Part shown: positions 18,266 to 44,900 of the stretch, one piece after another | Position numbering within the stretch: position 1 is the stretch's first letter | How the letters are laid out: each line of letters starts with the position of its first letter | Assembly: GCF_963921235.1 (NCBI RefSeq) | Contig: NC_086108.1 | Location: 5,022,001-5,086,000 of the forward strand | Reading direction: 5' to 3' | Source of the DNA: Mobula hypostoma | Taxonomy: Eukaryota | Length of the DNA: 64,000 nt | The notes under the pieces: generated by a model | Seen by the model: the letters and a program-made list of their open reading frames with translations, nothing else | Databases searched by the model: none | What the model was told of the DNA's origin: nothing | Translations under genes and position numbers: made by a program

Positions 18266-18330
18266 AGATTCTGGACGAACTTAGCAGGCCGGGCAGCATC
18301 CATGGAAAAAAAGTACAGTCAACGCACAGA

Positions 18331-19574: not shown

Positions 19575-19902
19575 AGCCTCGGGGCTCACACCACCAGGTT
19601 CAGGAACCGTTCCAACCCCCTCAACCATCAGGCTCTTGAACAAAAGGGGAAAACTACACTCACTTGCCCATCCATTGAGATGTTCCCACAACCAATTATC
19701 TCAATTTTAAGGACTCTTTTTCTCATGTTCTTGTTATCTATTGCCATTTACTTACACTTGTATTCGTCCAATTTGTCGCCTTCTGCACTCTGGTTGATCG
19801 TTCATTGATCCTGTTACAGTTACTGTTCCACAGATGTGCTGAAAATGAATCTCAGGGATATAGGTGTACATCGGTAATAAAACATTACTTCTTTGAACTT
19901 TG
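19575..19902 (+). mobile_element. LINE 3'UTR fragment (Rex1/Babar-type family); opposite-orientation relatives at ~17108-17310 and ~19060-19260
   Basis: Shares CACCACCAGGTTCAG...CAGGCTCTTGAAC with 2715-2900. TCTGCACTCTGGTTGATC...GAATCTCAGGG is the reverse complement of the 19060-19260 segment. Confidence 0.65.
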
Positions 19903-19959
19903 AGTTGCAAAGAAAGGAGTAACCGTTTCAATGCATCGAAGGAGCACTGAGCATGAAAG

Positions 19960-20900
19960 GTGATTTCAGAGGACGGTGATCGCTCCGGGATGAAAGAGCG
20001 CTTGGCTGAGAGCCTTGGCACCTTCACTTCCCCATGTCACTGCTCCAGCCGCCAGTCAACTCACCTCTCACACCCCCAAGTCAGCCCGCTCCGTCCAAAC
20101 CACAGTCAATCCAGAAAACTTTCCTTCTCTGATTCCTCTGCTCGGACGCTCTGCGATCGCGCTCTCGCTTTCTCTCTCTCTCGCCTTTCCCCGGACACAG
20201 AGCGCCTCCCCGGCACCGACACTCAGCTCAATCGCCGTTCGCTCCGCCGGCCACACCGAGCGCTGCAGGGCCGGACTCAGCGCTCTGGGACTTGTAGTTC
20301 CGCGGTCCCACCCGCGTCGTGAAATCAACCTACAATACCCGTCATCCCCCATGAGAGAACACTCGGCCAGTGCCGCAGTGCCTGCCGGGAACTAGAGAAC
20401 CAATCAAACAGCATCCGCCGACTGCAAAATTGACTACAACTCCCGTCAGGAGCAGCGCGACAACCACGCATGCGCATCCTCCGCTCGGGGGGGGGGAGCC
20501 GGGGGGCTTTAATCTTTCCTCAAGAATATAAATGTCTTGAATTTAAAATCATCGCCTCAAAACCGCAACCGAAGCAACAGAGTAAAACGACACCGTTACC
20601 TCATCACAGCGGAGACAGGAATCTCCCGAACGGATGCGATGCCGACATTCCTTTCCTGAGCGTTTGAGGTAGAATCCCGGTTTATTTTGAGGTGAAGGGG
20701 TGAGAACCCACGAGGCTGCGCGCGCAGCCCCATATACGCGCCCCGCCCACTTTCAGATCGGCGCCGTGACGATCCCGGTCGTTGCGGAAGCACCGCCCGC
20801 TCGGTTGCTAACAATAAAACGGTTGCTACGCAACCACTGGAAGCACGATATTGCTCGCTTTCTGGACTGTCCAATGGGCGTCCAGTCAGTGTCCACAACC
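19960..20900. promoter_or_regulatory. CpG-island promoter
   Basis: Abrupt rise in CpG density relative to the preceding 20 kb. Motifs: ACTACAAGTCCCAG (minus, ~20285-20300), GACTACAACTCCC (20432-20444), CCAAT (20400, 20871), NRF1-like CGCATGCGCA (20467-20476), GC box CCCCGCCC (20741), X-box GGTTGCTACGCAACC (20821-20835). Confidence 0.85.
20065..20260 (-). other. Candidate non-coding first exon of an unidentified minus-strand gene
   Basis: Consensus donor AG|GTGAGT on the minus strand at 20065/20064, just downstream of the ZNF143-type motif cluster. No ATG in the exon; the 5' end is a guess. Confidence 0.5.
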
Positions 20901-23900
20901 AGGGGAATCCCTGTACGAGTGTCAGTGGTTACAGTGAGGGGGAGGGAATCCCTGTACGAGTGTCAGTGGTTACAGTGAGGGAGGGAATCCCTGTACGAGT
21001 GTCAGTGGTTACAGTGACGGGGGGGGGGGGGAATCCCTGTACGAATCTCAGTGGTTACAGGGGGGGGGATCCCTGTACCAGTGTCAGTGGTTACAGTGAG
21101 GGAGGGAATCCCTCTACGAGTGTCAGTGGTTACAGTGAGGGAGGGAATCCCTGTACGATTGTCAGTGGTTACAGTGACGGGGGGGGGGAATCCCTGTACG
21201 AGTGTCAGTGGTTACAGTGACGGGGGGGGGGGAATCCCTGTACGAATCTCAGTGGTTACAGGGGGGGGGATCCCTGTACCAGTGTCAGTGGTTACAGTGA
21301 GGGAGGGAATCCCTCTACGAGTGTCAGTGGTTACAGTGAGGGAGGGAATCCCTGTACGATTGTCAGTGGTTACAGTGACGGGGGGGGGAATCCCTGTACG
21401 AGTGTCAGTGGTTACAGTGAGGGAGGGAATCCCTGTACGAGTGTCAGTGGTTACAGTCAGTGGGGGGAATCCCTGTACGAGTGTCAGTGGTTACAGTGAG
21501 GGAGGGCATCCCTCTACGAGTGTCAGTGGTTACAGTGAGGGGGGGAATCCCTGTACGAGTGTCAGTGGTTACAGTGAGGGGGGGAATCCCTGTACGAGTG
21601 TCAGTGGTTACAGTGAGGGGGGGGAATCCCTGTACGACTGTCAATGGTTACAGTGAGGGGGGAATCCCTGTACGAGTGTCAGTGGCTACAGTGAGGGGGG
21701 GGGGTAATGCCTGTACGAGTGTCAGTGGTTACAGTCAGTGGGGGGAATCCCTGTACGAGTGTCAGTGGTTACAGTGGGGGGGAGGAATCCCTGTACGAGT
21801 GTCAGTGGTTACAGTGAGGGGGGATTCCTGTATGATTGTCAGTGGTTACAGTGAGGGGGGAATCCCTGTACGAGTGTCAGTGGTTACAGTGATGGGGGGG
21901 AAATCCCTGTACGAGTGTCAGTGGGGGGAATCCCTGTACGAGTGTCAGTGGTTACAGTCAGGGGGGATACCTGTACGATTCTCAGTGGTTACAGTGACGG
22001 GGGGGGGAATCACTGTACGAGTGTCAGTGGTTACAGTGAGGGAGGGAATCCCTGTACGAGTGTCAGTGGTTACAGTCACTGGGGGGAATCCCTGTACGAG
22101 TGTCAGTGGTTACAGTGGGGGGGGGGATCCCTGTACGAGTGTCAGTGGTTACAGTGAGGGAGGGAATCCCTCTATGAGTGTCAGTGGTTACAGTGAGGGG
22201 GGGAATCCCTGTACGAGTGTCAGTGGTTAGACTGAGGGAGTGAATCCCTGTACGAGTGTCAGTGGTTACAATGACGGGGGGAATCCCTGTACGAGTGTCA
22301 GTGGTTACATTCAGTGGGGGGAATCCCTGTACGAGTATCAGTGGTTACAGTGACGGGGGGGGGATCCTTGTACGAGTGTCAGTGGTTACAGTCAGTGGGG
22401 GGAATGCCTGTACGAGTGTCAGTGGTTACAGTGAGGGGGGGTAATCCCTGTACGAGTGTCAGTGGTTACAGTGAGGGGGGGAATCCCTGTACGAGTGTCA
22501 ATGGTTACAGTCAGTGGGGGGAATCCCTGTACGAGTGTCAGTGGTTACACTGGGGGGGGGGATCCCTGTACGAGTGTCAGTGGTTACAGTGAGGGAGGGA
22601 ATCCCTCTATGAGTGTCAGTGGTTACAGTGAGGGGGGGAATCCCTGTACGAGTGTCAGTGGTTAGAGTGAGGGAGGGAATCCCTGTACGAGTGTCAGTGG
22701 TTACAGTGAGGGGGGGAATCCCTGTACGAGTGTCAGTGGTTACAGTCAGTGGGGGGAATCCCTGTACGAGTATCAGTGGTTACAGTGACAGGGGGGGGAT
22801 CCCTGTACGAGTGTCAGTGGTTACAGTCAGTGGGGGGGAATCCCTGTACGATTGTCAGTGGTTACAGTGACGGGGGGGGGGAATCCCTGTACGAATGTCA
22901 GTGGTTACAGAGGGGGGGGGGATCCCTCTACGAGTGTCAGTGGTTACAGTGAGGGGGGGAATCCCTGTACGAGTGTCAGTGGTTACAGTGAGGGGGGGAA
23001 TCCCTGTACGATTGTCAGTGGTTACAGTGACAGGGGGGGGAATCCCTGTACGAGTGTCAGTGGTTACAGTGAGGGAGGGAATCCCTGTACGAGTGTCAGT
23101 GGTTACAGTGAGGGGGGACACCCTGTATGAGTGTCAGTGGTTACAGTCAGTGGGGGGAATCCCTGTACGTGTGTCAGTGGTTACAGTGAGGGAGGGCATC
23201 CCTCTACGAGTGTCAGTGGTTACAGTGAGGGGGGGAATCCCTGTACGAGTGTCAGTGGTTACAGTGAGGGGGGGGGGGAATGCATGTACGAGTGTCAGTG
23301 GTTACAGTCAGTGGGGGGAATCCCTGTACGAGTGTCAGTGGTTACAGTGAGGGGGGATTCCTGTACGATTGTCAGTGGTTACAGTGAGGGGGGAATCCCT
23401 GTACGAGTGTCAGTGGTTACAGTGATCGGGGGGGAATCCCTGTACGACTGTCAGTGGGGGGAATCCCTGTACGAGTGTCAGTGGTTACAGTCAGGGGGGA
23501 TACCACGATTCTCAGTGGTTACAGTGACGGGGGGGGGAATCACTGTACGAGTGTCAGTGGTTACAGTGAGGGAGGGAATCCCTGTACGAGTGTCAGTGGT
23601 TACAGTCAGTGGGGGGAATCCCTGTACGAGTGTCAGTGGTTACAGTGGGGGGGGGAATCCCTGTACGAGTGTCAGTGGTTACAGTGAGGGAGGGAATCCC
23701 TCTATGAGTGTCAGTGGTTACAGTGAGGGGGGGAATCCCTGTACGAGTGTCAGTGGTTAGAGTGAGGGAGGGAATCCCTGTACGAGTGTCAGTGGTTACA
23801 GTGACGGGGGGAATCCCTGTACTAGTGTCAGTTGTTACATTCAGTGGGGGGAATCCCTGTACGAGTATCAGTGGTTACAGTGACGGGGGGGGGATCCTTG

Positions 23901-26900
23901 TACGAGTGTCAGTGGTTACAGTCAGTGGGGGGAATGCCTGTACGAGTGTCAGAGGTTACAGTGAGGGGGTGTAATCCCTGTACGAGTGTCAGTGGTTACA
24001 GTGAGGGGGGGAATCCCTGTACGAGTGTCAGTGGTTACAGTGAGGGGGAGAATCCCTGTACGAGTGTCAGTGGTTACAGTGAGGGGGGGAATCCCTGTAC
24101 GAGTGTCAGTGGTTACAGTGACGGGGGGATTCCTGTACGATTGTCAGTGGTTACAGTGACGGGGGGGGTGGGAATCCCTGTACGAGTGCCAGTGGTTACA
24201 GTGAGGGAGGGAATCCCTGTACGAGTGTCAGTGGTTACAGTCAGTGGGGGGAATCCCTGTACGAGTGTCAGTGGTTACAGTGAGGGAGGGAATCCCTGTA
24301 CGAATGTCAGTGGTTACAGTGGGGGGGGGGTATCCCTGTACGAGTGTCAGTGGTTACAGTGAGGGAGGGAATACCTCTACGAGTGTCAGTGGTTACAGTG
24401 AGGGGGGGAATCCCTGTACGAGTGTCAGTGGTTACAGTGAGGGGGGGAATCCCTGTACGAGTGCCAGTGGTTACAGTGACGGGGGGAATCCCTGTACGAG
24501 TGTCAGTGGTTACAGTCCGTGGGGGGAATCCCTGTACGAGTATCAGTGGTTACAGTGATGGGGGGGGGGAATCCCTGTACGAGTGTCAGTGGTTACAGTG
24601 ACGGGGGGTGGAATCCCTGTACGAGTTTCAGTGGTTACAGTGAGGGGGGGTAATCCCTGTACGAGTGTCAGTGGTTACAGTGAGGGGGGGAATCCCTGTA
24701 CGAGTGTCAGTGGTTACAGTGAGGGGGAGAATCCCTGTACGAGTGTCAGGGGTTACAGTGAGGGGGAGAATCCCTGTACGAGTGTCAGTGGTTACAATGG
24801 GGGGGGGAATTCCTGTACGAGTGTCAGTGGTTACAGTGAGGGAGGGAATCCCTCTACGAGTGTCAGTGGTTACAGTGAGGAGGGGAATCCCTGTACGAGT
24901 GTCAGTGGTTACAGTGAGGGGGGGAATCCCTGTACGAGTGTCAGTGGTTACAGTGAGGGGGGATTCCTGTTCGATTGTCAGTGGTTTCAGTGACGGGGGG
25001 GGGAATCCCTGTACGAGTGTCAGTGGTTACAGTGGGAGGGGGAATCCCTGTACGAGTGTCAGTGGTTACAGTCCGTGGGGGGAATCCCTGTACGAGTATC
25101 AGTGGTTACAGTGATGGGGGGGGAATCCCTGTACGAGTGTCAGTGGTTACAGTGAGGGGGGGTAATCCCTGTACGAGTGTCAGTGGTTACAGTGACGGGG
25201 GGGGTGGGAATCCCTGTACGAGTGCCAGTGGTTACAGTGAGGGAGGGAATCCCTGTATGAGTGTCAGTGGTTACAGTCAGTGGGGGAAATCCCTGTACGA
25301 GTGTCAGTGGTTACAGTGAGGGAGGGAATCCCTGTACGAGTGTCAGTGGTTACAGTGGGGGGGGGGTATCCCTGTACGAGTGTCAGTGGTTACAGTGAGG
25401 GAGGGAATACCTCTACGAGTGTCAGTGGTTACAGTGAGGGGGGGAATCCCTGTACGAGTGTCAGTGGTTACAGTGAGGGGGGGAATCCCTGTACGAGTGT
25501 CAGTGGTTACAGTGACGGGGGACACCCTGTATGAGTGTCAGTGGTTACAGTCCGTGGGGGAAATCCCTGTACGAGTATCAGTGGTTACAGTGATGGGGGG
25601 GGGAATCCCTGTACGAGTGTCAGTGGTTACAGTGACGGGGGGGGAATCCCTGTACGAGTGTCAGTGGTTACAGTGAGGGGGGGTAATCCCTGTACGAGTG
25701 TCAGTGGTTACAGTGAGGGGGGGAATCCCTGTACGAGTGTCAGTGGTTACAGTGAGGGGGAGAATCCCTGTACGAGTGTCAGGGGTTACAGTGAGGGGGA
25801 GAATCCCTGTACGAGTGTCAGTGGTTACAGTGGGGGGGGGAATCCCTGTACGAGTGTCAGTGGTTACAGTGAGGGAGGGAATCCCTCTACGAGTGTCAGT
25901 GGTTACAGTGAGGAGGGGAATCCCTGTACGAGTGTCAGTGGTTACAGTGAGGGGGGGAATCCCTGTACGAGTGTCAGTGGTTACAGTGAGGGGGGATTCC
26001 TGTACGATTGTCAGTGGTTTCAGTGACGGGGGGGGGGAATCCCTGTACGAGTGTCAGTGGTTACAGTGACGGGGGGGAATCCCTGTACGAGTGTCAGTGG
26101 TTACAGTGAGGGGGGGAATCCCTGTACGAGTGTCAGTGGTTACAGTGACGGGGGGGAATCCCTGTACGAGTGTCAGTGGTTACAGTGAGGGGGGGGGTAA
26201 TCCCTGTACGAGTGTCAGTGGTTACAGTGAGGGGGGGAATCCCTGTACGAGTGTCAGTGGTTACAGTGAGGGGGAGAATCCCTGTACGAATGTCAGGGGT
26301 TACAGTGAGGGGGAGAATCCCTGTACGAGTGTCAGTGGTTACAGTGGGGGGGGGGAATCCCTGTACGAGTGTCAGTGGTTACAGTGAGGGAGGGAATCCC
26401 TCTACGAGTGTCAGTGGTTACAGTGAGGAGGGGAATCCCTGTACGAGTGTCAGTGGTTACAGTGAGGGGGGGAATCCCTGTACGAGTGTCAGTGGTTACA
26501 GTGAGGGGGGATTCCTGTACGATTGTCAGTGGTTTCAGTGACGGGGGGGGGGAATCCCTGTACGAGTGTCAGTGGTTACAGTGAGGGGGGAATCCCTGTA
26601 CGAGTGTCAGTGGTTACAGTCAGTGGGGGGAATCCCTGTACGAGTGTCAGTGGTTACAGTCAGTGGGGGGAATCCCTGTACGAGTGTCAGTGGTTACAGT
26701 CAGTGGGGGGAATCCCTGTACGAGTGTCAGTGGTTACAGTGAGGGAGGGAATCCCTGTACGAATGTCAGTGGATACAGGGGGGGGTGATCCCTGTACGAG
26801 TGTCAGTGGTTACAGTGAGGGAGGGAATCCCTCTACGAGTGACAGTGGTTACAGTGAGCGGGGGAATCCCTGTACGAGTGTCAGTGGTTACAGTGAGGGG

Positions 26901-29900
26901 GGGAATCCCTGTACGAGTGTCAGTGGTTACAGTGACGGGGGGAATCCCTGTACGAGTGTCAGTAGTTACAGTCAGTGGGGGGAATCCCTGTACGAGTGTC
27001 AGTGGTTACAGTGAGGGGGGGAATCCCTGTACGAGTGCCAGTGGTTACAGTGACGGGGGGAATCCCTGTACGAGTGTCAGTGGTTACAGTCCGTGGGGGG
27101 AATCCCTGTACGAGTATCAGTGGTTACAGTGGTGGGGGGGGGGAATCCCTGTACGAGTGTCAGTGGTTACAGTGACGGGGGGGAATACCTGTACGAGTGT
27201 CAGTGGTTCCAGTGAGGGGGGGTAATCCCTGTACGAGTGTCAGTGGTTACAGTGAGGGGGGGAATCCCTGTACGAGTGTCAGTGGTTACAGTGAGGGGGA
27301 GAATCCCTGTACGAGTGTCAGGGGTTACAGTGAGGGGGAGAATCCCTGTACGAGTGTCAGTGGTTACAATGGGGGGTGGGAATTCCTGTACGAGTGTCAG
27401 TGGTTACAGTGAGGGAGGGAATCCCTGTACGAGTGTCAGTGGTTACAGTGACGGGGGGGAATCCCTGTACGAGTGTCAGTGGTTACAGTGAGGGGGGCGG
27501 TAATCCCTGTACGAGTGTCAGTGGTTACAGTGAGGGGGGGAATCCCTGTACGAGTGTCAATGGTTACAGTGAGGGGGAGAATCCCTGTACGAGTGTCAGT
27601 GGTTACAGTGAGTGGGAGAATCCCTGTACGAGTGTCAGTGGTTACAGTGATCGGGGGGGAATCCCTGTACGACTGTCAGTGGGGGGAATCCCTGTACGAG
27701 TGTCAGTGGTTACAGTCAGGGGGGATACCACGATTCTCAGTGGTTACAGTGACGGGGGGGGGAATCACTGTACGAGTGTCAGTGGTTACAGTGAGGGAGG
27801 GAATCCCTGTACGAGTGTCAGTGGTTACAGTCAGTGGGGGGAATCCCTGTACGAGTGTCAGTGGTTACAGTGGGGGGGGGAATCCCTGTACGAGTGTCAG
27901 TGGTTACAGTGAGGGAGGGAATCCCTCTATGAGTGTCAGTGGTTACAGTGAGGGGGGGAATCCCTGTACGAGTGTCAGTGGTTAGAGTGAGGGAGGGAAT
28001 CCCTGTACGAGTGTCAGTGGTTACAGTGACGGGGGGAATCCCTGTACGAGTGTCAGTTGTTACATTCAGTGGGGGGAATCCCTGTACGAGTATCAGTGGT
28101 TACAGTGACGGGGGGGTGATCCTTGTACGAGTGTCAGTGGTTACAGTCAGTGGGGGGAATGCCTGTACGAGTGTCAGAGGTTACAGTGAGGGGGTGTAAT
28201 CCCTGTACGAGTGTCAGTGGTTACAGTGGGGGGGTAATCCCTGTACGAGTGTCAGTGGTTACAGTGAGGGGGAGAATCCCTGTACGAGTGTCAGTGGTTA
28301 CAGTGAGGGGGGGAATCCCTGTACGAGTGTCAGTGGTTACAGTGACGGGGGGAATCCCTGCACGAGTGTCAGTAGTTACAGTCAGTGGGGGGAATCCCTG
28401 TACGAGTGTCAGTGGTTACAGTGAGGGGGGATTCCTGTACGATTGTCAGTGGTTACAGTGACGGGGGGGGTGGGAATCCCTGTACGAGTGCCAGTGGTTA
28501 CAGTGAGGGAGGGAATCCCTGTACGAGTGTCAGTGGTTACAGTCAGTGGGGGGAATCCCTGTACGAGTGTCAGTGGTTACAGTGAGGGAGGGAATCCCTG
28601 TACGAATGTCAGTGGTTACAGTGGGGGGGGGGGGTATCCCTGTACGAGTGTCAGTGGTTACAGTGAGGGAGGGAATCCCTCTACGAGTGTCAGTGGTTAC
28701 AGTGAGGGGGGGAATCCCTGTACGAGTGTCAGTGGTTACAGTGAGGGGGGCAATCCCTGTACGAGTGCCAGTGGTTACAGTGACGGGGGGAATCCCTGTA
28801 CGAGTGTCAGTGGTTACAGTCCGTGGGGGGAATCCCTGTACGAGTATCAGTGGTTACAGTGATGGGGGGGGGAATCCCTGTACGAGTGTCAGTGGTTACA
28901 GTGACGGGGGGGGAATCCCTGTACGAGTTTCAGTGGTTACAGTGAGGGGGTGTAATCCCTGTACGAGTGTCAGTGGTTACAGTGAGGGAGGGAATCCCTG
29001 TACGAGTGTCAGTGGTTACAGTGAGGGAGGGAATCCCTGTACGAGTGTCAGTGGTTACAGTGACGGGGGGAATCCCTGTACGAGTGTCAGTAGTTACAGT
29101 CAGTGGGGGGAATCCCTGTACGAGTGTCAGTGGTTACAGTGAGGGGGGATTCCTGTACGATTGTCAGTGGTTACAGTGACGGAGGGGGGGGGGAATCCCT
29201 GTACGAGTGCCAGTGGTTACAGTGAGGGAGGGAATCCCTGTACGAGTGTCAGTGGTTACAGTCAGTGGGGGGAATCCCTGTACGAGTGTCAGTGGTTACA
29301 GTGAGGGAGGGAATCCCTGTACGAATGTCAGTGGTTACAGTGGGGGGGGGTATCCCTGTACGAGTGTCAGTGGTTACAGTGAGGGAGGGAATCCCTCTAC
29401 GAGTGTCAGTGGTTACAGTGAGGAGGGGAATCCCTGTACGAGTGTCAGTGGTTACAGTGAGGGGGGGAATCCCTGTACGAGTGCCAGTGGTTACAGTGAC
29501 GGGGGGAATCCCTGTACGAGTGTCAGTGGTTACAGTCCGTGGGGGGAATCCCTGTACGAGTATCAGTGGTTACAGTGATGGGGGGGGGAATCCCTGTACG
29601 AGTGTCAGTGGTTACAGTGACGGGGGGGGAATCCCTGTACGAGTGTCAGTGGTTACAGTGAGGGGGGGTAATCCCTGTACGAGTATCAGTGGTTACAGTG
29701 AGGGGGGGAATCCCTGTACGAGTGTCAGTGGTTACAGTGAGGGGGAGAATCCCTGTACGAGTGTCAGGGGTTACAGTGAGGGGGAGAATCCCTGTACGAG
29801 TGTCAGTGGTTACAATGGGGGGTGGGAATTCCTGTACGAGTGTCAGTGGTTACAGTGAGGGAGGGAATCCCTGTACGAGTGTCAGTGGTTACAGTGACGG

Positions 29901-32900
29901 GGGGGGAATCCCTGTACGAGTGTCAGTGGTTACAGTGAGGGGGCGGTAATCCCTGTACGAGTGTCAGTGGTTACAGTGAGCGGGGGAATCCCTGTACGAG
30001 TGTCAATGGTTACAGTGAGGGGGAGAATCCCTGTACGAGTGTCAGTGGTTACAGTGAGTGGGAGAATCCCTGTACGAGTGTCAGTGGTTACAGTGATCGG
30101 GGGGGAATCCCTGTACGACTGTCAGTGGGGGGAGTCCCTGTACGAGTGTCAGTGGTTACAGTCAGGGGGGATACCACGATTCTCAGTGGTTACAGTGACG
30201 GGGGGGGGAATCACTGTACGAGTGTCAGTGGTTACAGTGAGGGAGGGAATCCCTGTACGAGTGTCAGTGGTTACAGTCAGTGGGGGGAATCCCTGTACGA
30301 GTGTCAGTGCTTACAGTGGGGGGGGGAATCCCTGTACGAGTGTCAGTGGTTACAGTGAGGGAGGGAATCCCTCTATGAGTGTCAGTGGTTACAGTGAGGG
30401 GGGGAATCCCTGTACGAGTGTCAGTGGTTAGAGTGAGGGAGGGAATCCCTGTACGAGTGTCAGTGGTTACAGTGACGGGGGGAATCCCTGTACGAGTGTC
30501 AGTTGTTACATTCAGTGGGGGGAATCCCTGTACGAGTATCAGTGGTTACAGTGACGGGGGGGGGATCCTTGTACGAGTGTCAGTGGTTACAGTCAGTGGG
30601 GGGAATGCCTGTACGAGTGTCAGAGGTTACAGTGAGGGGGTGTAATCCCTGTACGAGTGTCAGTGGTTACAGTGGGGGGGTAATCCCTGTACGAGTGTCA
30701 GTGGTTACAGTGAGGGGGAGAATCCCTGTACGAGTGTCAGTGGTTACAGTGAGGGGGGGAATCCCTGTACGAGTGTCAGTGGTTACAGTGACGGGGGGAA
30801 TCCCTGTACGAGTGTCAGTAGTTACAGTCAGTGGGGGGAATCCCTGTACGAGTGTCAGTGGTTACAGTGAGGGGGGATTCCTGTACGATTGTCAGTGGTT
30901 ACAGTGACGGGGGGGGTGGGAATCCCTGTACGAGTGCCAGTGGTTACAGTGAGGGAGGGAATCCCTGTACGAGTGTCAGTGGTTACAGTCAGTGGGGGGA
31001 ATCCCTGTACGAGTGTCAGTGGTTACAGTGAGGGAGGGAATCCCTGTACGAATGTCAGTGGTTACAGTGGGGGGGGGGGTATCCCTGTACGAGTGTCAGT
31101 GGTTACAGTGAGGGAGGGAATCCCTCTACGAGTGTCAGTGGTTACAGTGAGGGGGGGAATCCCTGTACGAGTGTCAGTGGTTACAGTGAGGGGGGCAATC
31201 CCTGTACGAGTGCCAGTGGTTACAGTGACGGGGGGAATCCCTGTACGAGTGTCAGTGGTTACAGTCCGTGGGGGGAATCCCTGTACGAGTATCAGTGGTT
31301 ACAGTGATGGGGGGGGGAATCCCTGTACGAGTGTCAGTGGTTACAGTGACGGGGGGGGAATCCCTGTACGAGTGTCAGTGGTTACAGTCCGTGGAGGGAA
31401 TCCCTGTACGAGTATCAGTGGTTACAGTGATGGGGGGGGAATCCCTGTACGAGTGTCAGTGGTTACAGTGAGGGGGGGTAATCCCTGTACGAGTGTCAGT
31501 GGTTACAGTGAGGGGGGGAATCCCTGTACGAGTGTCAGTGGTTACAGTGAGGGGGAGAATCCCTGTACGAATGTCAGGGGTTACAGTGAGGGGGAGAATC
31601 CCTGTACGAGTGTCAGTGGTTACAGTGGGGGGGGGGAATCCCTGTACGAGTGTCAGTGGTTACAGTGAGGGAGGGAATCCCTCTACGAGTGTCAGTGGTT
31701 ACAGTGAGGAGGGGAATCCCTGTACGAGTGTCAGTGGTTACAGTGAGGGGGGGAATCCCTGTACGAGTGTCAGTGGTTACAGTGAGGGGGGATTCCTGTA
31801 CGATTGTCAGTGGTTTCAGTGACGGGGGGGGGGAATCCCTGTACGAGTGTCCGTGGTTACAGTGAGGGAGGGAATCCCTGTACGAGTGTCAGTGGTTACA
31901 GTCAGTGGGGGGAATCCCTGTACGAGTGTCAGTGGTTACAGTCAGTGGGGGGAATCCCTGTACGAGTGTCAGTGGTTACAGTCAGTGGGGGGAATCCCTG
32001 TACGAGTGTCAGTGGTTACAGTGAGGGAGGGAATCCCTGTACGAATGTCAGTGGATACAGTGGGGGGTGATCCCTGTACGAGTGTCAGTGGTTACAGTGA
32101 GGGAGGGAATCCCTCTACGAGTGACAGTGGTTACAGTGAGCGGGGGAATCCCTGTACGAGTGTCAGTGGTTACAGTGAGGGGGGGAATCCCTGTACGAGT
32201 GTCAGTGGTTACAGTGACGGGGGGAATCCCTGTACGAGTGTCAGTAGTTACAGTCAGTGGGGGGAATCCCTGTACGAGTGTCAGTGGTTACAGTGAGGGG
32301 GGATTCCTGTACGATTGTCAGTGGTTACAGTGACGGGGGGGGGGTGGGAATCCCTGTACGAGTGCCAGTGGTTACAGTGAGGGAGGGAATCCCTGTACGA
32401 GTGTCAGTGGTTACAGTCAGTGGGGGGAATCCCTGTACGAGTGTCAGTGGTTACAGTGAGGGAGGGAATCCCTGTACGAATGTCAGTGGTTACAGTGGGG
32501 GGGGGTATCCCTGTACGAGTGTCAGTGGTTACAGTGAGGGAGGGAATCCCTCTACGAGTGTCAGTGGTTACAGTGAGGGGGGGAATCCCTGTACGAGTGT
32601 CAGTGGTTACAGTGAGGGGGGGAATCCCTGTACGAGTGCCAGTGGTTACAGTGACGGGGGGAATCCCTGTACGAGTGTCAGTGGTTACAGTCCGTGGGGG
32701 GAATCCCTGTACGAGTATCAGTGGTTACAGTGATGGGGGGGGGAATCCCTGTACGAGTGTCAGTGGTTACAGTGACGGGGGGGGGAATCCCTGTACGAGT
32801 GTCAGTGGTTACAGTGAGGGGGGATTCCTGTACGATTATCAGTGGTTTCAGTGACAAGGGGGGGGAATCCCTGTACGAGTGTCAGTGGTTACAGTGAGGG

Positions 32901-35900
32901 AGGGAATCCCTGTACGAGTGTCAGTGGTTACAGTCAGTGGGGGGAATCCCTGTACGAGTGTCAGTGGTTACAGTGAGGGAGGGAATCCCTGTACGAATGT
33001 CAGTGGTTACGGGGGTGGGGGGGAGAATCCCTGTACGAGTGTCAGTGGTTACAGTGAGGGACGGAATCCCTCTACGAGTGTCAGTGGTTACAGTGAGGGG
33101 GTGAATCCCTGTACGAGTGTCAGTGGTTACAGTGACGAGGGGAATCCCTGTACAAGTGTCAGTGGTTACAGTCAGTGGGGGGAATCCCTGTACGAGTGTC
33201 AGTGGTTACAGTGAGGGGGTGAATCCCTGTACGAGTGTCAGTGGTTACAGTGACGAGGGGAATCCCTGTACGAGTGTCAGTGTTACAGTCAGTGGGGGGA
33301 ATCCATGTACGAGTGCCAGTGGTTACAGTGACGGGGGGGGGGAATCCCTGTACGAGTGTCAGTGGTTACAGTCAGTGGGGGGAATCCCTGTACGAGTGTC
33401 AGTGGTTACAGTGACGGGGGGGGAATCCCTGTACGAGTGTCAGTTGTTACAGTGAGGGGGCGGTAATCCCTATACGAGTGTCAGTGGTTACAGTGAGGGG
33501 GGGAATCCCTGTACGAGTGTCAGTGGTTACAGTGAGGGGGAGAATCCCTGTACGAGTGTCAGTGGTTACAGTGAGTGGGAGAATCCCTGTACGAGTGTCA
33601 GTGGTTACAGTGAGGGAGGGAATCCCTGTACGAGTGTCAGTGGTTACAGTGGAGGGGGGGGAATCCCTGTACGAGTGTCAGTGGTTACAGTGAGGGAGTG
33701 AATCCCTCTACGAGTGTCAGTGGTTACAGTGAGGGCGGGAATCCCTGTACGAGTGTCAGTGGTTACAGTGTGGGGGGGAATCCCTGTACGACTGTCAGTG
33801 GTTACAGTGACGGGGGGAATCCCTGAATGAGTGTCAGTGGTTACAGTCAGTGGGGGGAATACCTGTACGAGTGTCAGTGGTTACAGTGACGGGGGGCGGA
33901 ATCCCTGTACGAGTGTCAGTGGTTACAGTGACGGGGGGAATCCCTGTACGACTGTCAGTGGTTACAGTGAGTGGGGGAATCCCTGTACGATTGTCAGTGG
34001 TTACAGTGACGGGGGGGAGGGGAATCCCTGTACGAATGTCAGTGGTTACAGAGGGGGGGGGATCCCTGTACGACTGTCAGTGGTTACAGTGAGGGAGGGA
34101 ATCCCTCTACGAGTGTCAGTGGTTACAGTGAGGGGGGGAATATCTGTACGAGTGTCAGTGGTTACAGTGAGGGGGGGAATCCCTGTACGATTGTCAGTGG
34201 TTACAGTGAGGGGGGGGAATCCCTGTACGGGTGTCAGTGGTTACAGTGAGGGAGGGAATCCCTGTACGAGTGTAAGTGGTTACAGTCAGTGGGGGGAATC
34301 CCTGTACGAGTGTCAGTGGTTACAGTGAGGGAGGGAATCCCTGTACGAATGTCAGTGGTTACAGAGGGGGGGGGGGATACGTGTACGACTGTCAGTGGTT
34401 ACAGTGAGGGAGGGAATCCCTCTACGAGTGTCAGTAGTTACAGTCAGTGGGGGCAATCCCTGTACGAGTGTCAGTGGTTACAGTCAGTGGGGGGAATCCC
34501 TGTACGAGTGTCAGTGGTTACAGTGATGGGGGGGGAATCCCTGTAGGAGTGTCAGTGGTTACAGTAAGGGGGGGTAATCCGTGTACGAGTGTCAGTGGTT
34601 ACAGTGAGGGGGGGAATCCCTGTACGAGTATCAGTGGTTACAGTGAGGATGAGAATCCCTGTACGACTGTCAGTGGTTACAGTGAGGGAGGGAATCCCTG
34701 TACGAGTGTCAGTGGTTATAGTGAGGGGGGGAATCCCTGTACGAGTGTCAGTGGTTACAGTGAGAGGGGATTCCTGTACGATTGTCAGTGGTTACAGTGA
34801 CGGGGGGGGGAGGGAATCCCTGTACGAGTGTCAGTGGTTACAGTGAGGGAGGTAATCCCTGTACGAGTGTCAGTGGTTACAGTCAGTGGGGGGAATCCAT
34901 GTACGAGTCTCAGTGGTTACAGTGAGGGAGGGAATCCCTGTACGAATGTCAGTGGTTACAGGGGGGGTGGGATCCCTGTACGAGTGTCAGTGGTTACAGT
35001 GAGGGAGGGAATCCCTCTACGAGTGTCAGTGGTTACAGTGAGGGGGGATTCCTGTACGAGTGTCAGTGGTTACAGTGACGGAGGGCGGGAATCCCTGTAC
35101 GAGTGCCAGTGGTTACAGTGAGGGAGGGAATCCCTCTACGAGTGTCAGTGGTTACAGTCAGTGGGGGGAATCCCTGTACGAGTGTCAGTGGTTACAGTGA
35201 GGGGGGGAATCCCTGTACGAGTGTCAGTGGTTACAGTGACGGGGGGAATCCCTGTACGAGTGTCAGTGGTTACAGTCAGTGGGGGTAATCCCTGTATGAG
35301 TGTCAGTGGTTACAGTGAGGGAGGGAATCCCTGTACGAATGTCAGTGGTTACAGTGGGGGGGGGGATCCCTGTACGAGTGTCAGTGGTTACAGTTAGGGA
35401 GGGAATCCCTCTACGAGTGTCAGTGGTTACAGTGAGGGGGGGAATCCCTGTACGAGTGTCAGTGGTTTCAGTGATGGGGGGAATCCCTGAACGAGTGTCA
35501 GTGGTTACAGTGACGGGGGGAATCCCTGTACGAGTGTCAGTGGTTACAGTCCGTGTGGGGAATCCCTGTACGAGTATCAGTGGTTACAGTGATGGGGGGG
35601 GAATCCCTCTACGAGTGTCAGTGGTTACAGTGACGGGGGTGGGAATCCCTGTACGAGTGTCAGTGGTTACAGTGAGGGGGGGAATCCCTGTACGAGTGTC
35701 AGTGGTTACACTGAGGGGGAGAATCCCTGTACGAGTGTCAGGGGTTACAGTGTGGGGGAGAATCCCTGTACGAGTGGCAGTGGTTACAGTGGGGGGGGGG
35801 GAATCCCTGTACGAGTGTCGGTGGTTACAGTGAGCGAGGGAATCCCACTACGAGTGTCAGTGGTTACAGTGAGGAAGGGAATCCCTGTACGAGTGTCAGT

Positions 35901-38900
35901 GGTTACAGTGAGGGGGGCAATCCCTGTACGAGTGTCAGTGGTTACAGTGAGGGGGGATTCCTGTACGATTATCAGTGGTTTCAGTGACAAGGGGGGGGGA
36001 ATCCCTGTACGAATGTCAGTGGTTACAGAGGAGGGGGGATCCCTGTACGACTGTCAGTGGTTACAGTGAGGGAGGGAATCCCTCTACGAGTGTCAGTGGT
36101 TACAGTGAGGGGGGGAATCGCTGTACGAGTGTCAGTGGTTACAGTCAGTGGGGGGAATCCCTGTACGAGTGTCAGTGGTTACAGTGAGGGAGGGAATCCC
36201 TCTACGAGTGTCAGTGGTTACAGTGAGGGGGGAATCCCTGTACGAGTGTCAGTGGTTACACTGTGGGAGGGAATCCCTCTACGAGTGTCTGTGGTTACAG
36301 TGAGGGGGGGAATCCCTGTACGATTCTCAGTGGTTACAGTGACGGGGGGGAATCCCTGTACGTGTGTCAGTGGTTACAGTGAGGGAGGGAATCCCTGTAC
36401 GAGTGTCAGTGGTTACAGTCAGTGGGGGTAATCCCTGTACGAGTGTCAGTGGTTATAGTGAGGGAGGGAATCCCTGTACGAATGTCAGTGGTTACGGGGG
36501 TGGGGGATCCCTGTACGAGTGTCAGTGGTTACAGTGCTGGGGGGAATCCCTGTACGAGTGTCAGTGGTTACAGTCAGTGGGGGGAATCCCTGTACGAGTG
36601 TCAGTGGTTACAGTGAGGGGGGGAATCCCTGTACGAGTGTCAGTGGTTACAGTGACAGGGGGAATCCCTGTACGAGTGTCAGTGGTTACAGTCAGTGGGG
36701 GGAATCCCTGTACGAGTGTCAGTGGTTACAGTGAGGGGGGATTCCTGTACGATTGTCAGTGGTTACAGTGAGGGGGGGGGAATCCCTGTACGAGTGCCAG
36801 TGGTTACAGTGAGGGAGGGAATCCCTGTACGAGTGTCAGTGGTTACAGTCAGTGGGGGTAATCCCTGTACGAGTGTCAGTGGTTACAGTGAGGGAGGGAA
36901 TCCCTGTACGAATGTCAGTGGTTAAAGTGGGGGGGGGGATCCCTGTACGAGTGTCAGTGGTTACAGTTAGGGAGGGAATCCCTGTACGAGTGTCAGTGGT
37001 TACAGTGAGGGGGGGAATCCCTGTACGAGTGTCAGTGGTTACAGTGAGGGGGGGAATCCCTGTACGAGTGTCAGTGGTTACAGTGACGGGGGGAATCCCT
37101 GTACGAGTGTCAGTGGTTACAGTCCGTGGGGGGAATCCCTGTACGAGTATCAGTGGTTACAGTGATGGGGGGGGGGAATCCCTGTACGAGTGTCAGTGGT
37201 TACAGTGACGGGGGTGGGAATCCCTGTACGAGTGTCAGTGGTTACAGTGAGGGGGGGAATCCCTGTACGAGTGTCAGTGGTTACACTGAGGGGGAGAATC
37301 CCTGTACGAGTGTCAGGGGTTACAGTGTGGGGGAGAATCCATGTACGAGTGTCAGTGGTTACAGTGGGGGGGTGGGGAATCCCTGTACGAGTGTCAGTGG
37401 TTACAGTGAGGGAGGGAATCCCACTACGAGTGTCAGTGGTTACAGTGAGGAGGGGAATCCCTGTACGAGTGTCAGTGGTTACAGTGAGGGGGGGAATCCC
37501 TGTACGAGTGTCAGTGGTTACAGTGAGGGGGGATTCCTGTACGATTGTCAGTGGTTTCAGTGACAAGGGGGGGGAATCCCTGTACGAGTGTCAGTGGTTA
37601 CAGTGAGGGAGGGAATCCCTGTACGAGTGTCAGTGGTTACAGTCAGTGGGGGGAATCCCTGTACGAGTGTCAGTGGTTACAGTGAGGGAGGGAATCCCTG
37701 TACGAATGTCAGTGGTTACACTGAGGGGGTGAATCCCTGTACGAGTGTCAGTGGTTACAGTGACGAGGGGAATCCCTGTACAAGTGTCAGTGGTTACAGT
37801 CAGTGGGGGGAATCCCTGTACGAGTGTCAGTGGTTACAGTGAGGGGGTGAATCCCTGTACGAGTGTCAGTGGTTACAGTGACGAGGGGAATCCCTGTACG
37901 AGTGTCAGTGTTAACTTCAGTGGGGGGAATCCCTGTACGAGTGCCAGTGGTTACAGTGACGGGGGGGGGGAATCCCTGTACGAGTGTCAGTGGTTACAGT
38001 CAGTGGGGGGAATCCCTGTACGAGTGTCAGTGGTTACAGTGACGGGGGGGAATCCCTGTACGAGTGTCAGTGGTTACAGTGACGGGGGGAATCCCTGTAC
38101 GAGTGTCAGTGGTTACAGTCCGTGGGGGGAATCCCTGTACGAGTATCAGTGGTTACAGTGATGGGGGGGGGGGAATCCCTGTACGAGTGTCAGTGGTTAC
38201 AGTGACGGGGGTGGGAATCCCTGTACGAGTGTCAGTGGTTACAGTGAGGGGGGGAATCCCTGTACGAGTGTCAGTGGTTACACTGAGGGGGAGAATCCCT
38301 GTACGAGTGTCAGGGGTTACAGTGTGGGGGAGAATCCATGTACGAGTGTCAGTGGTTACAGTGGGGGGGTGGGGAATCCCTGTACGAGTGTCAGTGGTTA
38401 CAGTGAGGGAGGGAATCCCACTACGAGTGTCAGTGGTTACAGTGAGGAGGGGAATCCCTGTACGAGTGTCAGTGGTTACAGTGAGGGGTGGAATCCCTGT
38501 ACGAGTGTCAGTGGTTACAGTGAGGGGGGATTCCTGTACGATTATCAGTGGTTTCAGTGACAAGGGGGGGGAATCCCTGTACGAGTGTCAGTGGTTACAG
38601 TGAGGGAGGGAATCCCTGTACGAGTGTCAGTGGTTACAGTCAGTGGGGGGAATCCCTGTACGAGTGTCAGTGGTTACAGTGAGGGAGGGAATCCCTGTAC
38701 GAATGTCAGTGGTTACAGTGAGGGGGTGAATCCCTGTACGAGTGTCAGTGGTTACAGTGACGAGGGGAATCCCTGTACAAGTGTCAGTGGTTACAGTCAG
38801 TGGGGGGAATCCCTGTACGAGTGTCAGTGGTTACAGTGAGGGGGTGAATCCCTGTACGAGTGTCAGTGGTTACAGTGACGAGGGGAATCCCTGTACGAGT

Positions 38901-41900
38901 GTCAGTGTTAACTTCAGTGGGGGGAATCCCTGTACGAGTGCCAGTGGTTACAGTGACGGGGGGGGGGACACCCTGTATGAGTGTCAGTGGTTACAGTCAG
39001 TGGGGGGAATCCCTGTACGAGTGTCAGTGGTTACAGTGACGGGGGGGAATCCCTGTACGAGTGTCAGTGGTTACAGTGACGGGGGGAATCCCTGTACGAG
39101 TGTCAGTGGTTACAGTCCGTGGGGGGAATCCCTGTACGAGTATCAGTGGTTACAGTGATGGGGGGGGGGGAATCCCTGTACGAGTGTCAGTGGTTACAGT
39201 GACGGGGGTGGGAATCCCTGTACGAGTGTCAGTGGTTACAGTGAGGGGGGGAATCCCTGTACGAGTGTCAGTGGTTACACTGAGGGGGAGAATCCCTGTA
39301 CGAGTGTCAGGGGTTACAGTGTGGGGGAGAATCCATGTACGAGTGTCAGTGGTTACAGTGGGGGGGTGGGGAATCCCTGTACGAGTGTCAGTGGTTACAG
39401 TGAGGGAGGGAATCCCACTACGAGTGTCAGTGGTTACAGTGAGGAGGGGAATCCCTGTACGAGTGTCAGTGGTTACAGTGAGGGGGGGAATCCCTGTACG
39501 AGTGTCAGTGGTTACAGTGAGGGGGGATTCCTGTACGATTATCAGTGGTTTCAGTGACAAGGGGGGGGAATCCCTGTACGAGTGTCAGTGGTTACAGTGA
39601 GGGAGGGAATCCCTGTACGAGTGTCAGTGGTTACAGTTAGTGGGGGGAATCCCTGTACGAGTGTCAGTGGTTACAGTGAGGGAGGGAATCCCTGTACGAA
39701 TGTCAGTGGTTACAGTGAGGGGGTGAATCCCTGTACGAGTGTCAGTGGTTACAGTGACGAGGGGAATCCCTGTACAAGTGTCAGTGGTTACAGTCAGTGG
39801 GGGGAATCCCTGTACGAGTGTCAGTGGTTACAGTGAGGGGGTGAATCCCTGTACGAGTGTCAGTGGTTACAGTGACGAGGGGAATCCCTGTATGAGTGTC
39901 AGTGGTTACAGTCAGTGGGGGAAATCCCTGTACGAGTGTCAGTGGTTACAGTGACGGGGGGGGGAATCCCTGTACGAGTGTCAGTGGTTACAGTCAGTGG
40001 GGGGAATCCCTGTACGAGTGTCAGTGGTTACAGTGACGGGGGGGAATCCCTGTACGAGTGTCAGTGGTTACAGTGACGGGGGGAATCCCTGTACGAGTGT
40101 CAGTGGTTACAGTCCGTGGGGGGAATCCCTGTACGAGTATCAGTGGTTACAGTGATGGGGGGGGGGAATCCCTGTACGAGTGTCAGTGGTTACAGTGACG
40201 GGGGTGGGAATCCCTGTACGAGTGTCAGTGGTTACAGTGAGGGGGGGAATCCCTGTACGAGTGTCAGTGGTTACACTGAGGGGGAGAATCCCTGTACGAG
40301 TGTCAGGGGTTACAGTGTGGGGGAGAATCCATGTACGAGTGTCAGTGGTTACAGTGGGGGGGTGGGGAATCCCTGTACGAGTGTCAGTGGTTACAGTGAG
40401 GGAGGGAATCCCACTACGAGTGTCAGTGGTTACAGTGAGGAGGGGAATCCCTGTACGAGTGTCAGTGGTTACAGTGAGGGGGGGAATCCCTGTACGAGTG
40501 TCAGTGGTTACAGTGAGGGGGGATTCCTGTACGATTATCAGTGGTTTCAGTGACAAGGGGGGGGAATCCCTGTACGAGTGTCAGTCGTTACAGTGAGGGA
40601 GGGAATCCCTGTACGAGTGTCAGTGGTTACAGTCAGTGGGGGGAATCCCTGTACGAGTGTCAGTGGTTACAGTGAGCGAGGGAATCCCTGTACGAATGTC
40701 AGTGGTTACAGTGAGGGGGTGAATCCCTGTACGAGTGTCAGTGGTTACAGTGACGAGGGGAATCCCTGTACAAGTGTCAGTGGTTACAGTCAGTGGGGGG
40801 AATCCCTGTACGAGTGTCAGTGGTTACAGTGAGGGGGTGAATCCCTGTACGAGTGTCAGTGGTTACAGTGACGAGGGGAATCCCTGTACGAGTGTCAGTG
40901 TTACAGTCAGTGGGGGGAATCCCTGTACGAGTGCCAGTGGTTACAGTGACGGGGGGGGGGAATCCCTGTACGAGTGTCAGTGGTTACAGTCAGTGGGGGG
41001 AATCCCTGTACGAGTGTCAGTGGTTACAGTGACGGGGGGGGAATCCCTGTACGAGTGTCAGTGGTTAGAGTGAGGGGGCGGTAATCCCTATACGAGTGTC
41101 AGTGGTTACAGTGAGGGGGGGAATCCCTGTACGAGTGTCAGTGGTTACAGTGAGGGGGAGAATCCCTGTACGAGTGTCAGTGGTTACAGTGAGTGGGAGA
41201 ATCCCTGTACGAGTGTCAGTGGTTACAGTGAGGGAGGGAATCCCTGTACGAGTGTCAGTGGTTACAGTGGAGGGGGGGGGGAATCCCTGTACGAGTGTCA
41301 GTGGTTACAGTGAGGGAGTGAATCCCTCTACGAGTGTCAGTGGTTACAGTGAGGGCGGGAATCCCTGTACGAGTGTCAGTGGTTACAGTGAGGGGGGGAA
41401 TCCCTGTACGACTGTCAGTGGTTACAGTGACGGGGGGAATCCCTGAATGAGTGTCAGTGGTTACAGTCAGTGGGGGGAATACCTGTACGAGTGTCAGTGG
41501 TTACAGTGACGGGGGGCGGAATCCCTGTACGAGTGTCAGTGGTTACAGTGACGGGGGGAATCCCTGTACGACTGTCAGTGGTTACAGTGAGTGGGGGAAT
41601 CCCTGTAAGATTGTCAGTGGTTACAGTGACTGGGGGGAGGGGAATCCCTGTACGAATGTCAGTGGTTACAGAGGGGGGGGGATCCCTGTACGACTGTCAG
41701 TGGTTACAGTGAGGGAGGGAATCCCTCTACGAGTGTCAGTGGTTACAGTGAGGGTGGGAATATCTGTACGAGTGTCAGTGGTTACAGTGAGGGGGGGAAT
41801 CCCTGTACGAGTGTCAGTGGTTACAGTGAGGGGGGGGAATCCCTGTACGGGTGTCAGTGGTTACAGTGAGGGAGGGAATCCCTGTACGAGTGTAAGTGGT

Positions 41901-44900
41901 TACAGTCAGTGGGGGGAATCCCTGTACGAGTGTCAGTGGTTACAGTGAGGGAGGGAATTCCTGTACGAATGTCAGTGGTTACAGAGGGGGGGGGGATACC
42001 TGTACGACTGTCAGTGGTTACAGTGAGGGAGGGAATCCCTCTACGAGTGTCAGTAGTTACAGTCAGTGGGGGCAATCCCTGTACGAGTGTCAGTGGTTAC
42101 AGTCAGTGGGGGGAATCCCTGTACGAGTGTCAGTGGTTACAGTGATGGGGGGGGAATCCCTGTACGAGTGTCAGTGGTTACAGTAAGGGGGGGTAATCCC
42201 TGTACGAGTGTCAGTGGTTACAGTGAGGGGGGGAATCCCTGTACGAGTATCAGTGGTTACAGTGAGGATGAGAATCCCTGTACGACTGTCAGTGGTTACA
42301 GTGAGGGAGGGAATCCCTGTACGAGTGTCAGTGGTTATAGTGAGGGGGGGAATCCCTGTACGAGTGTCAGTGGTTACAGTGAGAGGGGATTCCTGTACGA
42401 TTGTCAGTGGTTACAGTGACGGGGGGGGGGGGAGGGAATCCCTGTACGAGTGTCAGTGGTTACAGTGAGGGAGGTAATCCCTGTACGAGTGTCAGTGGTT
42501 ACAGTCAGTGGGGGGAATCCCTGTACGAGTCTCAGTGGTTACAGTGAGGGAGGGAATCCCTGTACGTATGTCAGTGGTTACAGGGGGGGGGGGATCCCTG
42601 TACGAGTGTCAGTGGTTACAGTGAGGGAGGGAATCCCTCTACGAGTGTCAGTGGTTACAGTGAGGGGGGATTCCTGTACGATTGTCAGTGGTTACAGTGA
42701 CGGGGGGGGGGAATCCCTGTACGAGTGCCAGTGGTTACAGTGAGGGAGGGAATCCCTCTACGAGTGTCAGTGGTTACAGTCAGTGGGGGGAATCCCTGTA
42801 CGAGTGTCAGTGGTTACAGTGAGGGGGGGAATCCCTGTACGAGTGTCAGTGGTTACAGTGACGGGGGGAATCCCTGTACGAGTGTCAGTGGTTACAGTCA
42901 GTGGGGGTAATCCCTGTATGAGTGTCAGTGGTTACAGTGAGGGAGGGAATCCCTGTACGAATGTCAGTGGTTACAGTGGGGGGGGGGATCCCTGTACGAG
43001 TGTCAGTGGTTACAGTTAGGGAGGGAATCCCTCTACGAGTGTCAGTGGTTACAGTGAGGGGGGGAATCCCTGTACGAGTGTCAGTGGTTACAGTGATGGG
43101 GGGAATCCCTGAACGAGTGTCAGTGGTTACAGTGACGGGGGGAATCCCTGTACGAGTGTCAGTGGTTACAGTCCGTGTGGGGAATCCCTGTACGAGTATC
43201 AGTGGTTACAGTGATGCGGGGGGAATCCCTCTACGAGTGTCAGTGGTTACAGTGACGGGGGTGGGAATCCCTGTACGAGTGTCAGTGGTTACAGTGAGGG
43301 GGGGAATCCCTGTACGAGTGTCAGTGGTTACACTGAGGGGGAGAATCCCTGTACGAGTGTCAGGGGTTACAGTGTGGGGGAGAATCCCTGTACGAGTGGC
43401 AGTGGTTACAGTGGGGGGGGGGGGGAATCCCTGTACGAGTGTCGGTGGTTACAGTGAGCGAGGGAATCCCACTACGAGTGTCAGTGGTTACAGTGAGGAA
43501 GGGAATCCCTGTACGAGTGTCAGTGGTTACAGTGAGGGGGGCAATCCCTGTACGAGTGTCAGTGGTTACAGTGAGGGGGGATTCCTGTACGATTATCAGT
43601 GATTTCAGTGACAAGGGGGGGGGAATCCCTGTACGAGTGTCAGTGGTTAGAGTGAGGGAGGGAATCCCTCTACGAGTGTCAGTGGTTACAGTGAGGGGGT
43701 GAATCCCTGTACGAGTGTCAGTGGTTACAGTGACGAGGGGAATCCCTGTACAAGTGTCAGTGGTTACAGTCAGTGGGGGGAATCCCTGTACGAGTGTCAG
43801 TGGTTACATTGAGGGGGTGAATCCCTGTACGAGTGTCAGTGGTTACAGTGACGAGGGGAATCCCTGTACGAGTGTCAGTGTTACAGTCAGTGGGGGGAAT
43901 CCATGTACGAGTGCCAGTGGTTACAGTGACGGGGGGGGGGAATCCCTGTACGAGTGTCAGTGGTTACAGTCAGTGGGCGGAATCCCTGTACGAGTGTCAG
44001 TGGTTACAGTGACGGGGGGGGAATCCCTGTACGAGTGTCAGTGGTTACAGTGAGGGTGCGGTAATCCCTATACGAGTGTCAGTGGTTACAGTGAGGGGGG
44101 GAATCCCTGTACGAGTGTCAGTGGTTACAGTGAGGGGGAGAATCCCTGTACGAGTGTCAGTGGTTACAGTGAGTGGGAGAATCCCTGTACGAGTGTCAGT
44201 GGTTACAGTGAGGGAGGGAATCCCTGTACGAGTGTCAGTGGGTACAGTGGAGGGGGGGGGGAATCCCTGTACGAGTGTCAGTGGTTACAGTGAGGGAGTG
44301 AATCCCTCTACGAGTGTCAGTGGTTACAGTGACGAGGGGAATCCCTGTACAAGTGTCAGTGGTTACAGTCAGTGGGGGGAATCCCTGTACGAGTGTCAGT
44401 GGTTACAGTGAGGGGGTGAATCCCTGTACGAGTGTCAGTGGTTACAGTGACGAGGGGAATCCCTGTACGAGTGTCAGTGTTACAGTCAGTGGGGGGAATC
44501 CATGTACGAGTGCCAGTGGTTACAGTGACGGGGGGGGGAATCCCTGTACGAGTGTCAGTGGTTACAGTCAGTGGGGGGAATCCCTGTACGAGTGTCAGTG
44601 GTTACAGTGACGGGGGGGGAATCCCTGTACGAGTGTCAGTGGTTACAGTGAGGGGGCGGTAATCCCTATACGAGTGTCAGTGGTTACAGTGAGGGGGGGA
44701 AATCCCTGTACGAGTGTCAGTGGTTACAGTGAGGTTGAGAATCCCTGTACGAGTGTCAGTGGTTACAGTGAGTGGGAGAAACCCTGTACGAGTGTCAGTG
44801 GTTACAGTGAGGGAGGGAATCCCTGTACGAGTGTCAGTGGGTACAGTGGAGGGGGGGGGAATCCCTGTACGAGTGTCAGTGGTTACAGTGAGGGAGTGAT

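Follow-up and report, generated by a model that had tools for sequence, protein, structure and literature searches.

Several described systems resemble parts of this locus. For the HRAS1 minisatellite, binding of Rel proteins has been reported (PMC3618361, with reference to Trepicchio and Krontiris 1992). More generally, human VNTRs are described as over-represented in CpG islands and at less than 1 kb from genes (PMC8096271), and many of them are stated to track expression (bioRxiv 2020.12.16.423078), so that the adjacency of an array to a gene or an island is itself already known. Among promoters, SBS motifs were reported to be 2.4-fold enriched in bidirectional ones and to occur in 10% of unidirectional ones too (PMC3082894). 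Shark and ray genomes are described as rich in simple tandem repeats, which become commoner towards chromosome ends (bioRxiv 2025.06.08.657570; PMC10620051).

In the window, by which we mean the whole stretch of 64,000 nucleotides that was analysed, 20.9 kb of transposon-rich DNA is followed by one tandem array, and a CpG island forms the edge between them. Like the 28-bp HRAS1 VNTR, the array consists of GC-rich, non-identical units beside a gene, with a kB consensus in the unit. In contrast, the HRAS1 repeat lies 3' of the ORF, and binding and an enhancer effect were reported there, whereas here there is the kB sequence alone. The HRAS1 minisatellite is also far shorter than 43 kb. The promoter resembles bidirectional CpG-island promoters of the ZNF143/Staf type, as characterised in PMC3082894, in its ACTACAnnTCCC motifs, its NRF1-like and CCAAT elements and one spliced direction; it differs in that the second direction is just hinted at here and the motifs are known from sequence. 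Compared with human eVNTRs and mVNTRs, the array is at least 43 kb long and is known from one assembly. Its likeness to the simple tandem tracts of sharks and rays (PMC10620051; bioRxiv 2025.06.08.657570) is that of GC-rich tracts among genes, but the trends taken from these sources are genome-wide and do not deal with arrays that abut promoters. A literature search, with most subscription journals outside its coverage, turned up no described shark or ray array that abuts a promoter in a comparable way. The array is a large, well-preserved promoter-proximal or intronic minisatellite, of a kind already known.

Table. Features at the CpG island and the array, in window positions; a slash separates exon from intron.
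Feature	Position	Strand	Basis or remark
CpG island	~19950..20901 (approximate limits)	.	AT-richer middle ~20500-20700
3' part of exon 1, leftward gene	20065..20129	-	donor GAG/GTGAGT, intron from 20064
ZNF143/SBS-type motif ACTACAANYCCC	20287..20298	- (points left)	0/2000 shuffles reach 2
Weaker third SBS-type copy	~20330-20344		sequence
ZNF143/SBS-type motif	20433..20444	+ (points right)	inverted pair with 20287-20298
NRF1-like element	20468..20477	.	sequence; unaffected by the listed differences to organism B
Candidate non-coding first exon, divergent transcript	20508..20691	+ (strand inferred)	ends AG/GTGAAG, GT 20692-20693
Right-hand motif cluster	20718..20875	.	GCGC tract, GC boxes, X-box-like sites, AATAAA, CCAAT
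GCGC tract	20718-20727	.	right-hand cluster
GC boxes	20743-20748, 20793-20798	.	right-hand cluster
X-box-like sites	20804-20810, 20822-20834	.	20822 site: 2 mismatches to consensus
AATAAA	20813-20818	+	right-hand cluster
CCAAT	20871-20875	+	right-hand cluster
39-bp minisatellite array	20902..64000	+ (G-rich on +)	TRF, own parse; uninterrupted, open at right end

The bin 20001-21000 has a GC content of 0.58 and a CpG o/e of 0.97; in the remaining 20 kb-bins, which cover 1-20000, the o/e is 0.13-0.72. Within the island, 200-bp windows have a GC content of 0.47-0.65 and a CpG o/e of about 1, and the stretch is a CpG island under thresholds of GC >50-55%, CpG o/e >0.6 and length >500 bp. GC skew across it showed no clean flip and no mirror pattern. 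Searches returned no Rfam match at E<=1 in 19500-21300 and no Pfam family for 4 island reading frames.

We compared the contigs of 4 of the 22 listed runs with positions 19880-20960. A 781-nt contig from run X5, assigned to a related species (organism B), aligned to 20173-20942 with 50 substitutions and 12 gaps over ~770 bp, a divergence of ~6%. In the part from 20173 to 20778, where 39 of the 52 differences could be used, transitions were found at 2 of 57 CpGs and at 5 of 242 non-CpG C/G sites, which argues that there has been no methylation-driven CpG decay in the island. We infer from this substitution pattern that the island is probably unmethylated in the germline. Factor binding and transcription keep CpG islands unmethylated, and the same would apply here, with bound factors and transcription maintaining the island; an island so kept would have a sharp sequence edge against the array.

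The alignment of organism B also bears on the junction itself. The island ends at 20901 and the array follows without spacer DNA, its first letter lying 26 bp beyond the CCAAT. The sequence-only reading had placed the island end at 20900, with the array beginning immediately, some 25 bp from the CCAAT, and both statements agree with the measured positions. The contig of organism B spans the junction and continues for 41 letters on the array side, all within unit 1, where it ends, so that it gives no reading of array length in that species. In four runs of a possible source sample, which are not independent of one another, 0.99 of 94 words drawn from 19950-20935 were present. Head-to-tail joints of the unit were found in 4/4 of the runs whose contigs were compared. 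Summed contig depth was far higher in unit 1 than in the island in the same 4/4 runs, a quantity that measures neither copy number nor expression. Organism C (run X11) gave two unspliced pieces within 19978-20390 and, among the contigs compared, no piece at the junction. The comparison with a related species, which the sequence-only reading left to further work, thus confirms that the junction is genuine and common to the species of the window and organism B, since a contig that crosses it shows that it was not misassembled. The 39-bp unit has stood at the island edge since before the two species split, as shown for unit 1.

TRF describes the array as a repeat of period 39 with 1091.8 copies and 88% matches. 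Our own parse gave 1085 unit starts; the 1084 complete units comprise 335 distinct ones, and their length differences arise mostly from a G-run. Divergence from the unit consensus is about 2-4% (mean 3.7% over the first 32 bases). Local higher-order blocks of 25, 61 and 192 units are present and imperfect, and they suggest that the array grew in blocks by slippage and unequal exchange. The array runs past the right edge of the window, and its 43 kb is a minimum; with that qualification the length given earlier was correct. It had also been called a giant satellite: the size stands at 43 kb or more, but the class does not, since head-to-tail units of ~10-100 bp with variant repeats define a minisatellite and the unit here has 39 bp. 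In the parse of 20902-64000 every stretch of at least 20 nt was repeat-like, which leaves no hidden exon of that size. A coding array was rejected; the longest frame has 286 codons and indels in the G-run break it. The unit shares no 12-mer with 1-20900, so that an origin from a nearby element is unsupported. We also considered the island flank as a decayed unit: at offset 36 it agrees with the unit at 10 of 16 positions, but the likeness is not significant (P=0.08-0.14 and 0.54) and the idea is unsupported. Folding of two units gave z=-1.85 on the plus strand and 0.38 on the minus strand, which indicates no structured RNA, and 2 canonical G-quadruplex matches occur in the 43 kb. By eye, the minus strand of the array (20902-64000) has a branch-point-like CTGAC followed by an acceptor-like TACAG/G in each consensus unit.

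CpG o/e falls from 1.23 (20701-20900) to 0.37 (20901-21100) at the junction, because of the composition of the 39-bp unit. Within the array, CpG transitions number 33.5 per site as compared with 14.7 for other C/G sites in 1065 of the 1084 units, the copies being non-independent; over 101 distinct cores the values are 5.5 and 2.9. This excess of about 2-fold is weak support for methylation of the array and does not extend to heterochromatin.

Transcript evidence was obtained from two runs, X7 and X8, taken by guess to be of RNA type. A 2671-nt contig of run X7 matches the leftward exon with 0 differences and departs exactly at its donor, which has 8 of 9 matches to the donor consensus. The next 30 letters of the contig were not found in the window even with 3 mismatches allowed. 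Thus, the next exon lies outside the window and intron 1 of the leftward gene exceeds 20 kb, so that it holds the 57-bp array at 12734-16096. Run X8 did not cover the leftward exon, and the splice was found in 1 of the 2 RNA-type runs. This one contig shows a spliced gene transcribed leftward, away from the array, and it supports the island as an active leftward promoter. The promoter had been judged apparently intact, a judgement that the spliced contig and the retention of CpGs in organism B bear out.

Further minus-strand signals were seen in this region. A donor GAG/GTAACG (20594-20602) is unchanged in organism B, and the sole contig over it is unspliced. As a sequence element, it might serve as the end of an alternative first exon farther upstream, under the control of the X-box cluster. 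Two stretches, ~17920-18030 and 16420-16570, have acceptor-like and donor-like borders by eye and are possible alternative exons of the leftward gene. The 57-bp array (59 copies, 97% matches) was amplified from the end of a dispersed element whose single copies lie at ~2130, 5427, 11371 and 18436; as its unit length is a multiple of 3, it yields long spurious plus-strand ORFs of up to 542 aa. Also on the minus strand are a broken Tc1/Sleeping Beauty-like transposase fragment at ~3300-3900 (PF25787, E=6e-12) and, at ~8000-9600, a frameshifted DNA-transposon-like coding remnant with a weak DUF659 match (E=0.007), which we presume to be hAT-like.

The island contains two motif clusters, a left one of ZNF143/NRF1 type and a right one of GC boxes, X-box-like sites and CCAAT; the NRF1, NF-Y and X-box assignments follow the consensus sequences of these elements. 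Two ACTACAANYCCC motifs were observed where 0.001 was expected, and none of 2000 dinucleotide shuffles reached two. The CCAAT is at chance level, with 2 observed and 1.77 expected in the island and P=0.27 in its last 162 bp. GC boxes gave P=0.28 over the island and 0.015 in the last 162 bp, with regions and motifs chosen after looking, and X-box half-sites gave P=0.0015 in the last 162 bp, where region and motif were likewise post hoc. Of the earlier description of intact GC-box, X-box and CCAAT motifs at the array end, the presence of the sites and a post hoc enrichment of the first two therefore hold, but the CCAAT is no more than chance would give. A cluster of the kind found in bidirectional promoters had also been noted. 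The SBS pair is significant, but the SBS-type cluster lies 458-615 bp from the array, with its nearest motif at least 458 bp away, and not at the CCAAT end. A single change in organism B makes the SBS at 20287-20298 identical with the second motif, and the SBS at 20433-20444 has no listed change. The two GC-rich, motif-bearing blocks 20279-20500 and 20711-20778 differ from organism B at 10-11% of positions, ~3x as much as neighbouring DNA; the SBS, NRF1-like and GC-box motifs are retained inside these fast-diverging blocks, and a CCAAT at 20400 is lost in organism B.

A bidirectional promoter calls for two stable transcripts from opposite strands whose starts are less than 1 kb apart, and on the rightward side we found one unstranded contig that ends at a plus-strand donor. 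This 184-nt contig of run X7 (depth 4, no loose end) covers exactly the candidate exon. With 6 free contig ends, the probability of one such end coinciding with AG/GT is ~0.02, calculated post hoc. Differences to organism B amount to 1/106 in 20173-278, 25/222 in 20279-500, 4/210 in 20501-710 and 7/68 in 20711-778, and 4 of 191 sites differ in 20501-20691 as against 32 of 309 in the flanks (P=0.0003). This low-high-low-high course fits an exon-promoter-exon-intron layout. However, 19880-20182 (10/303) is conserved equally well as the candidate exon (4/191; P=0.58), so that the pattern may reflect fast-evolving promoter blocks instead. The left end of the contig falls on a minus-strand ATTAAA and the contig crosses the minus-strand donor at 20599 unspliced; it could therefore be leftward RNA. 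Unlike the leftward contig, it also lacks letters of a next exon, which spliced RNA would normally show. On this one unstranded contig from one run, we rate the chance of a plus-strand first exon at 20508-20691 as slightly better than even. The array would then start 210 bp into the first intron of a divergent partner, for which the hint is weak, and this placement would be the commonest third option beside the two put forward earlier, a chromatin boundary and a satellite lncRNA. Among the pieces listed for X7 and X8, none covers 20694-20878, to which we attach no evidential weight. A coding exon from an ATG at 20874 to a donor at 20934 was demoted, as searches with it found no protein relative and no Pfam family.

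The explanation that we prefer, and to which we give an even chance, is that of an ordinary ZNF143/NRF1-type promoter for the leftward gene, with the array as a passenger that probably lies in a rightward intron. It draws on the exact splice, the bridged junction, the lack of CpG hypermutation in the island, the SBS pair and the contig end on AG/GT. The promoter would be an ordinary CpG island of this type whose demonstrated product is spliced leftward, and the array would most likely be tolerated. A rightward product would probably have a first exon ending at the 20692 donor, which would make the array intronic, although the indication for this is weak. Transcription could pass through an intron of this kind. 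The plus strand of the array has 576 ACA/GTGAG (U1-like) sites, and neither strand contains AATAAA or ATTAAA; hundreds of U1-like sites with no poly(A) signal make read-through plausible. U1 sites are held to promote elongation, and in human cells Integrator is described as more important for antisense termination than poly(A) signals (PMC11230626). Since poly(A) signals are reported there to play little role in antisense termination, less weight falls on the AATAAA at 20813. The 57-bp array inside leftward intron 1 likewise indicates that arrays in transcribed introns are tolerated here.

A different possibility, somewhat unlikely but to be taken seriously, is that the promoter is in effect leftward only and the array is intergenic DNA upstream of it that is probably methylated and may be heterochromatic, with a short divergent RNA that ends before the array; the right-hand cluster would then possibly hold a second, RFX/NF-Y-driven leftward start. 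This amounts to the sharp boundary proposed in the sequence-only reading, minus the satellite transcript. The splice that was seen is leftward only, an alternative first exon could consist of the right-hand cluster with the donor at 20599, a plus-strand AATAAA stands at 20813, and CpG o/e drops at the junction. However, this drop is explained by unit composition and array CpG transitions are raised just ~2-fold, the contig end at the 20692 donor would have to be left to chance, and the Integrator dependence of antisense termination (PMC11230626) weakens the AATAAA argument.

We consider it unlikely that the right-hand cluster fires rightward from ~20880-20960 into the array, to give a satellite lncRNA or a short first exon, together with the proposal that an exon-intron junction (ATG 20874, phase-0 donor ACA/GTGAGG at 20934) seeded the repeat. 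Such firing would fit the above-chance numbers of X-box half-sites and GC boxes in the final 162 bp of the island, and also the U1-like sites and missing poly(A) signals of the array plus strand. Contigs of the repeat unit occur in 2/2 RNA-type runs, and one X7 variant is found exactly 2x in the array. However, repeat contigs are not assignable to a locus or a strand, and DNA in the runs would look alike. All four loose-end variants tested from organism B lack an exact match in the array, which indicates that the repeat family is wider than the stretch in the window. The 40-aa frame to the 20934 donor gave 3 candidates, none at E<=10, which is weak evidence, and no Pfam family, and the CCAAT is at chance level.

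Very unlikely, in our estimation, is a functional array, in which ~620 kB sites would act as an NF-kB-responsive enhancer or sink and array length would tune the neighbouring gene or genes in the manner of HRAS1. The kB consensus GGGRNWYYCC, for which we used PMC6450194, is matched by the unit junction GGGGAATCCC; this holds for 619 of 1085 junctions, evenly along the array, and 531 of the matches are a near-palindrome that matches both strands. By comparison, 1-20901 contains 1 match and 0.3-0.4% of shuffled units contain one. The report of Rel/NF-kB binding to the 28-bp HRAS1 minisatellite (PMC3618361) and the description of human VNTRs near genes as expression QTLs (bioRxiv 2020.12.16.423078; PMC8096271) would agree with such a role. 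On the other hand, the choice of this motif was made post hoc among those of many possible factors, 466 of the 1085 junctions have no kB site, and the ATCCC columns are conserved no better than the rest of the unit. Consensus kB sites are, moreover, described as very numerous and mostly unbound (PMC6450194). That a length-variable cluster of >600 kB sites, 26 bp from an open CpG island and in a U1-protected, poly(A)-free first intron, might serve as an inducible mega-enhancer or NF-kB sink is a long shot.

Finally, that the assembler joined the array to the island is barely credible: the far end and full length of the array do depend on the assembly, but a contig of an independent species bridges the junction with 41 array letters and refutes a misassembly there, nearly all of the words tested were found in the runs of the possible source sample, and the higher-order blocks are imperfect rather than exact copies, the longest identical run being 14 units.

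Judged by sequence, the locus is an ordinary feature of a repeat-rich genome. If the functional array were true, a kB array would couple a housekeeping ZNF143 promoter to immune signalling, at a junction kept in at least two related species, and if the kB sites were bound, the array would be an extreme example among repeat-built enhancers. The finding means that a vertebrate CpG-island promoter can keep its integrity and activity next to tens of kilobases of minisatellite that start from its last base, and that such a junction can persist across ~6% divergence. The locus is thus a clean natural test site for asking if silencing spreads from large tandem arrays into islands.
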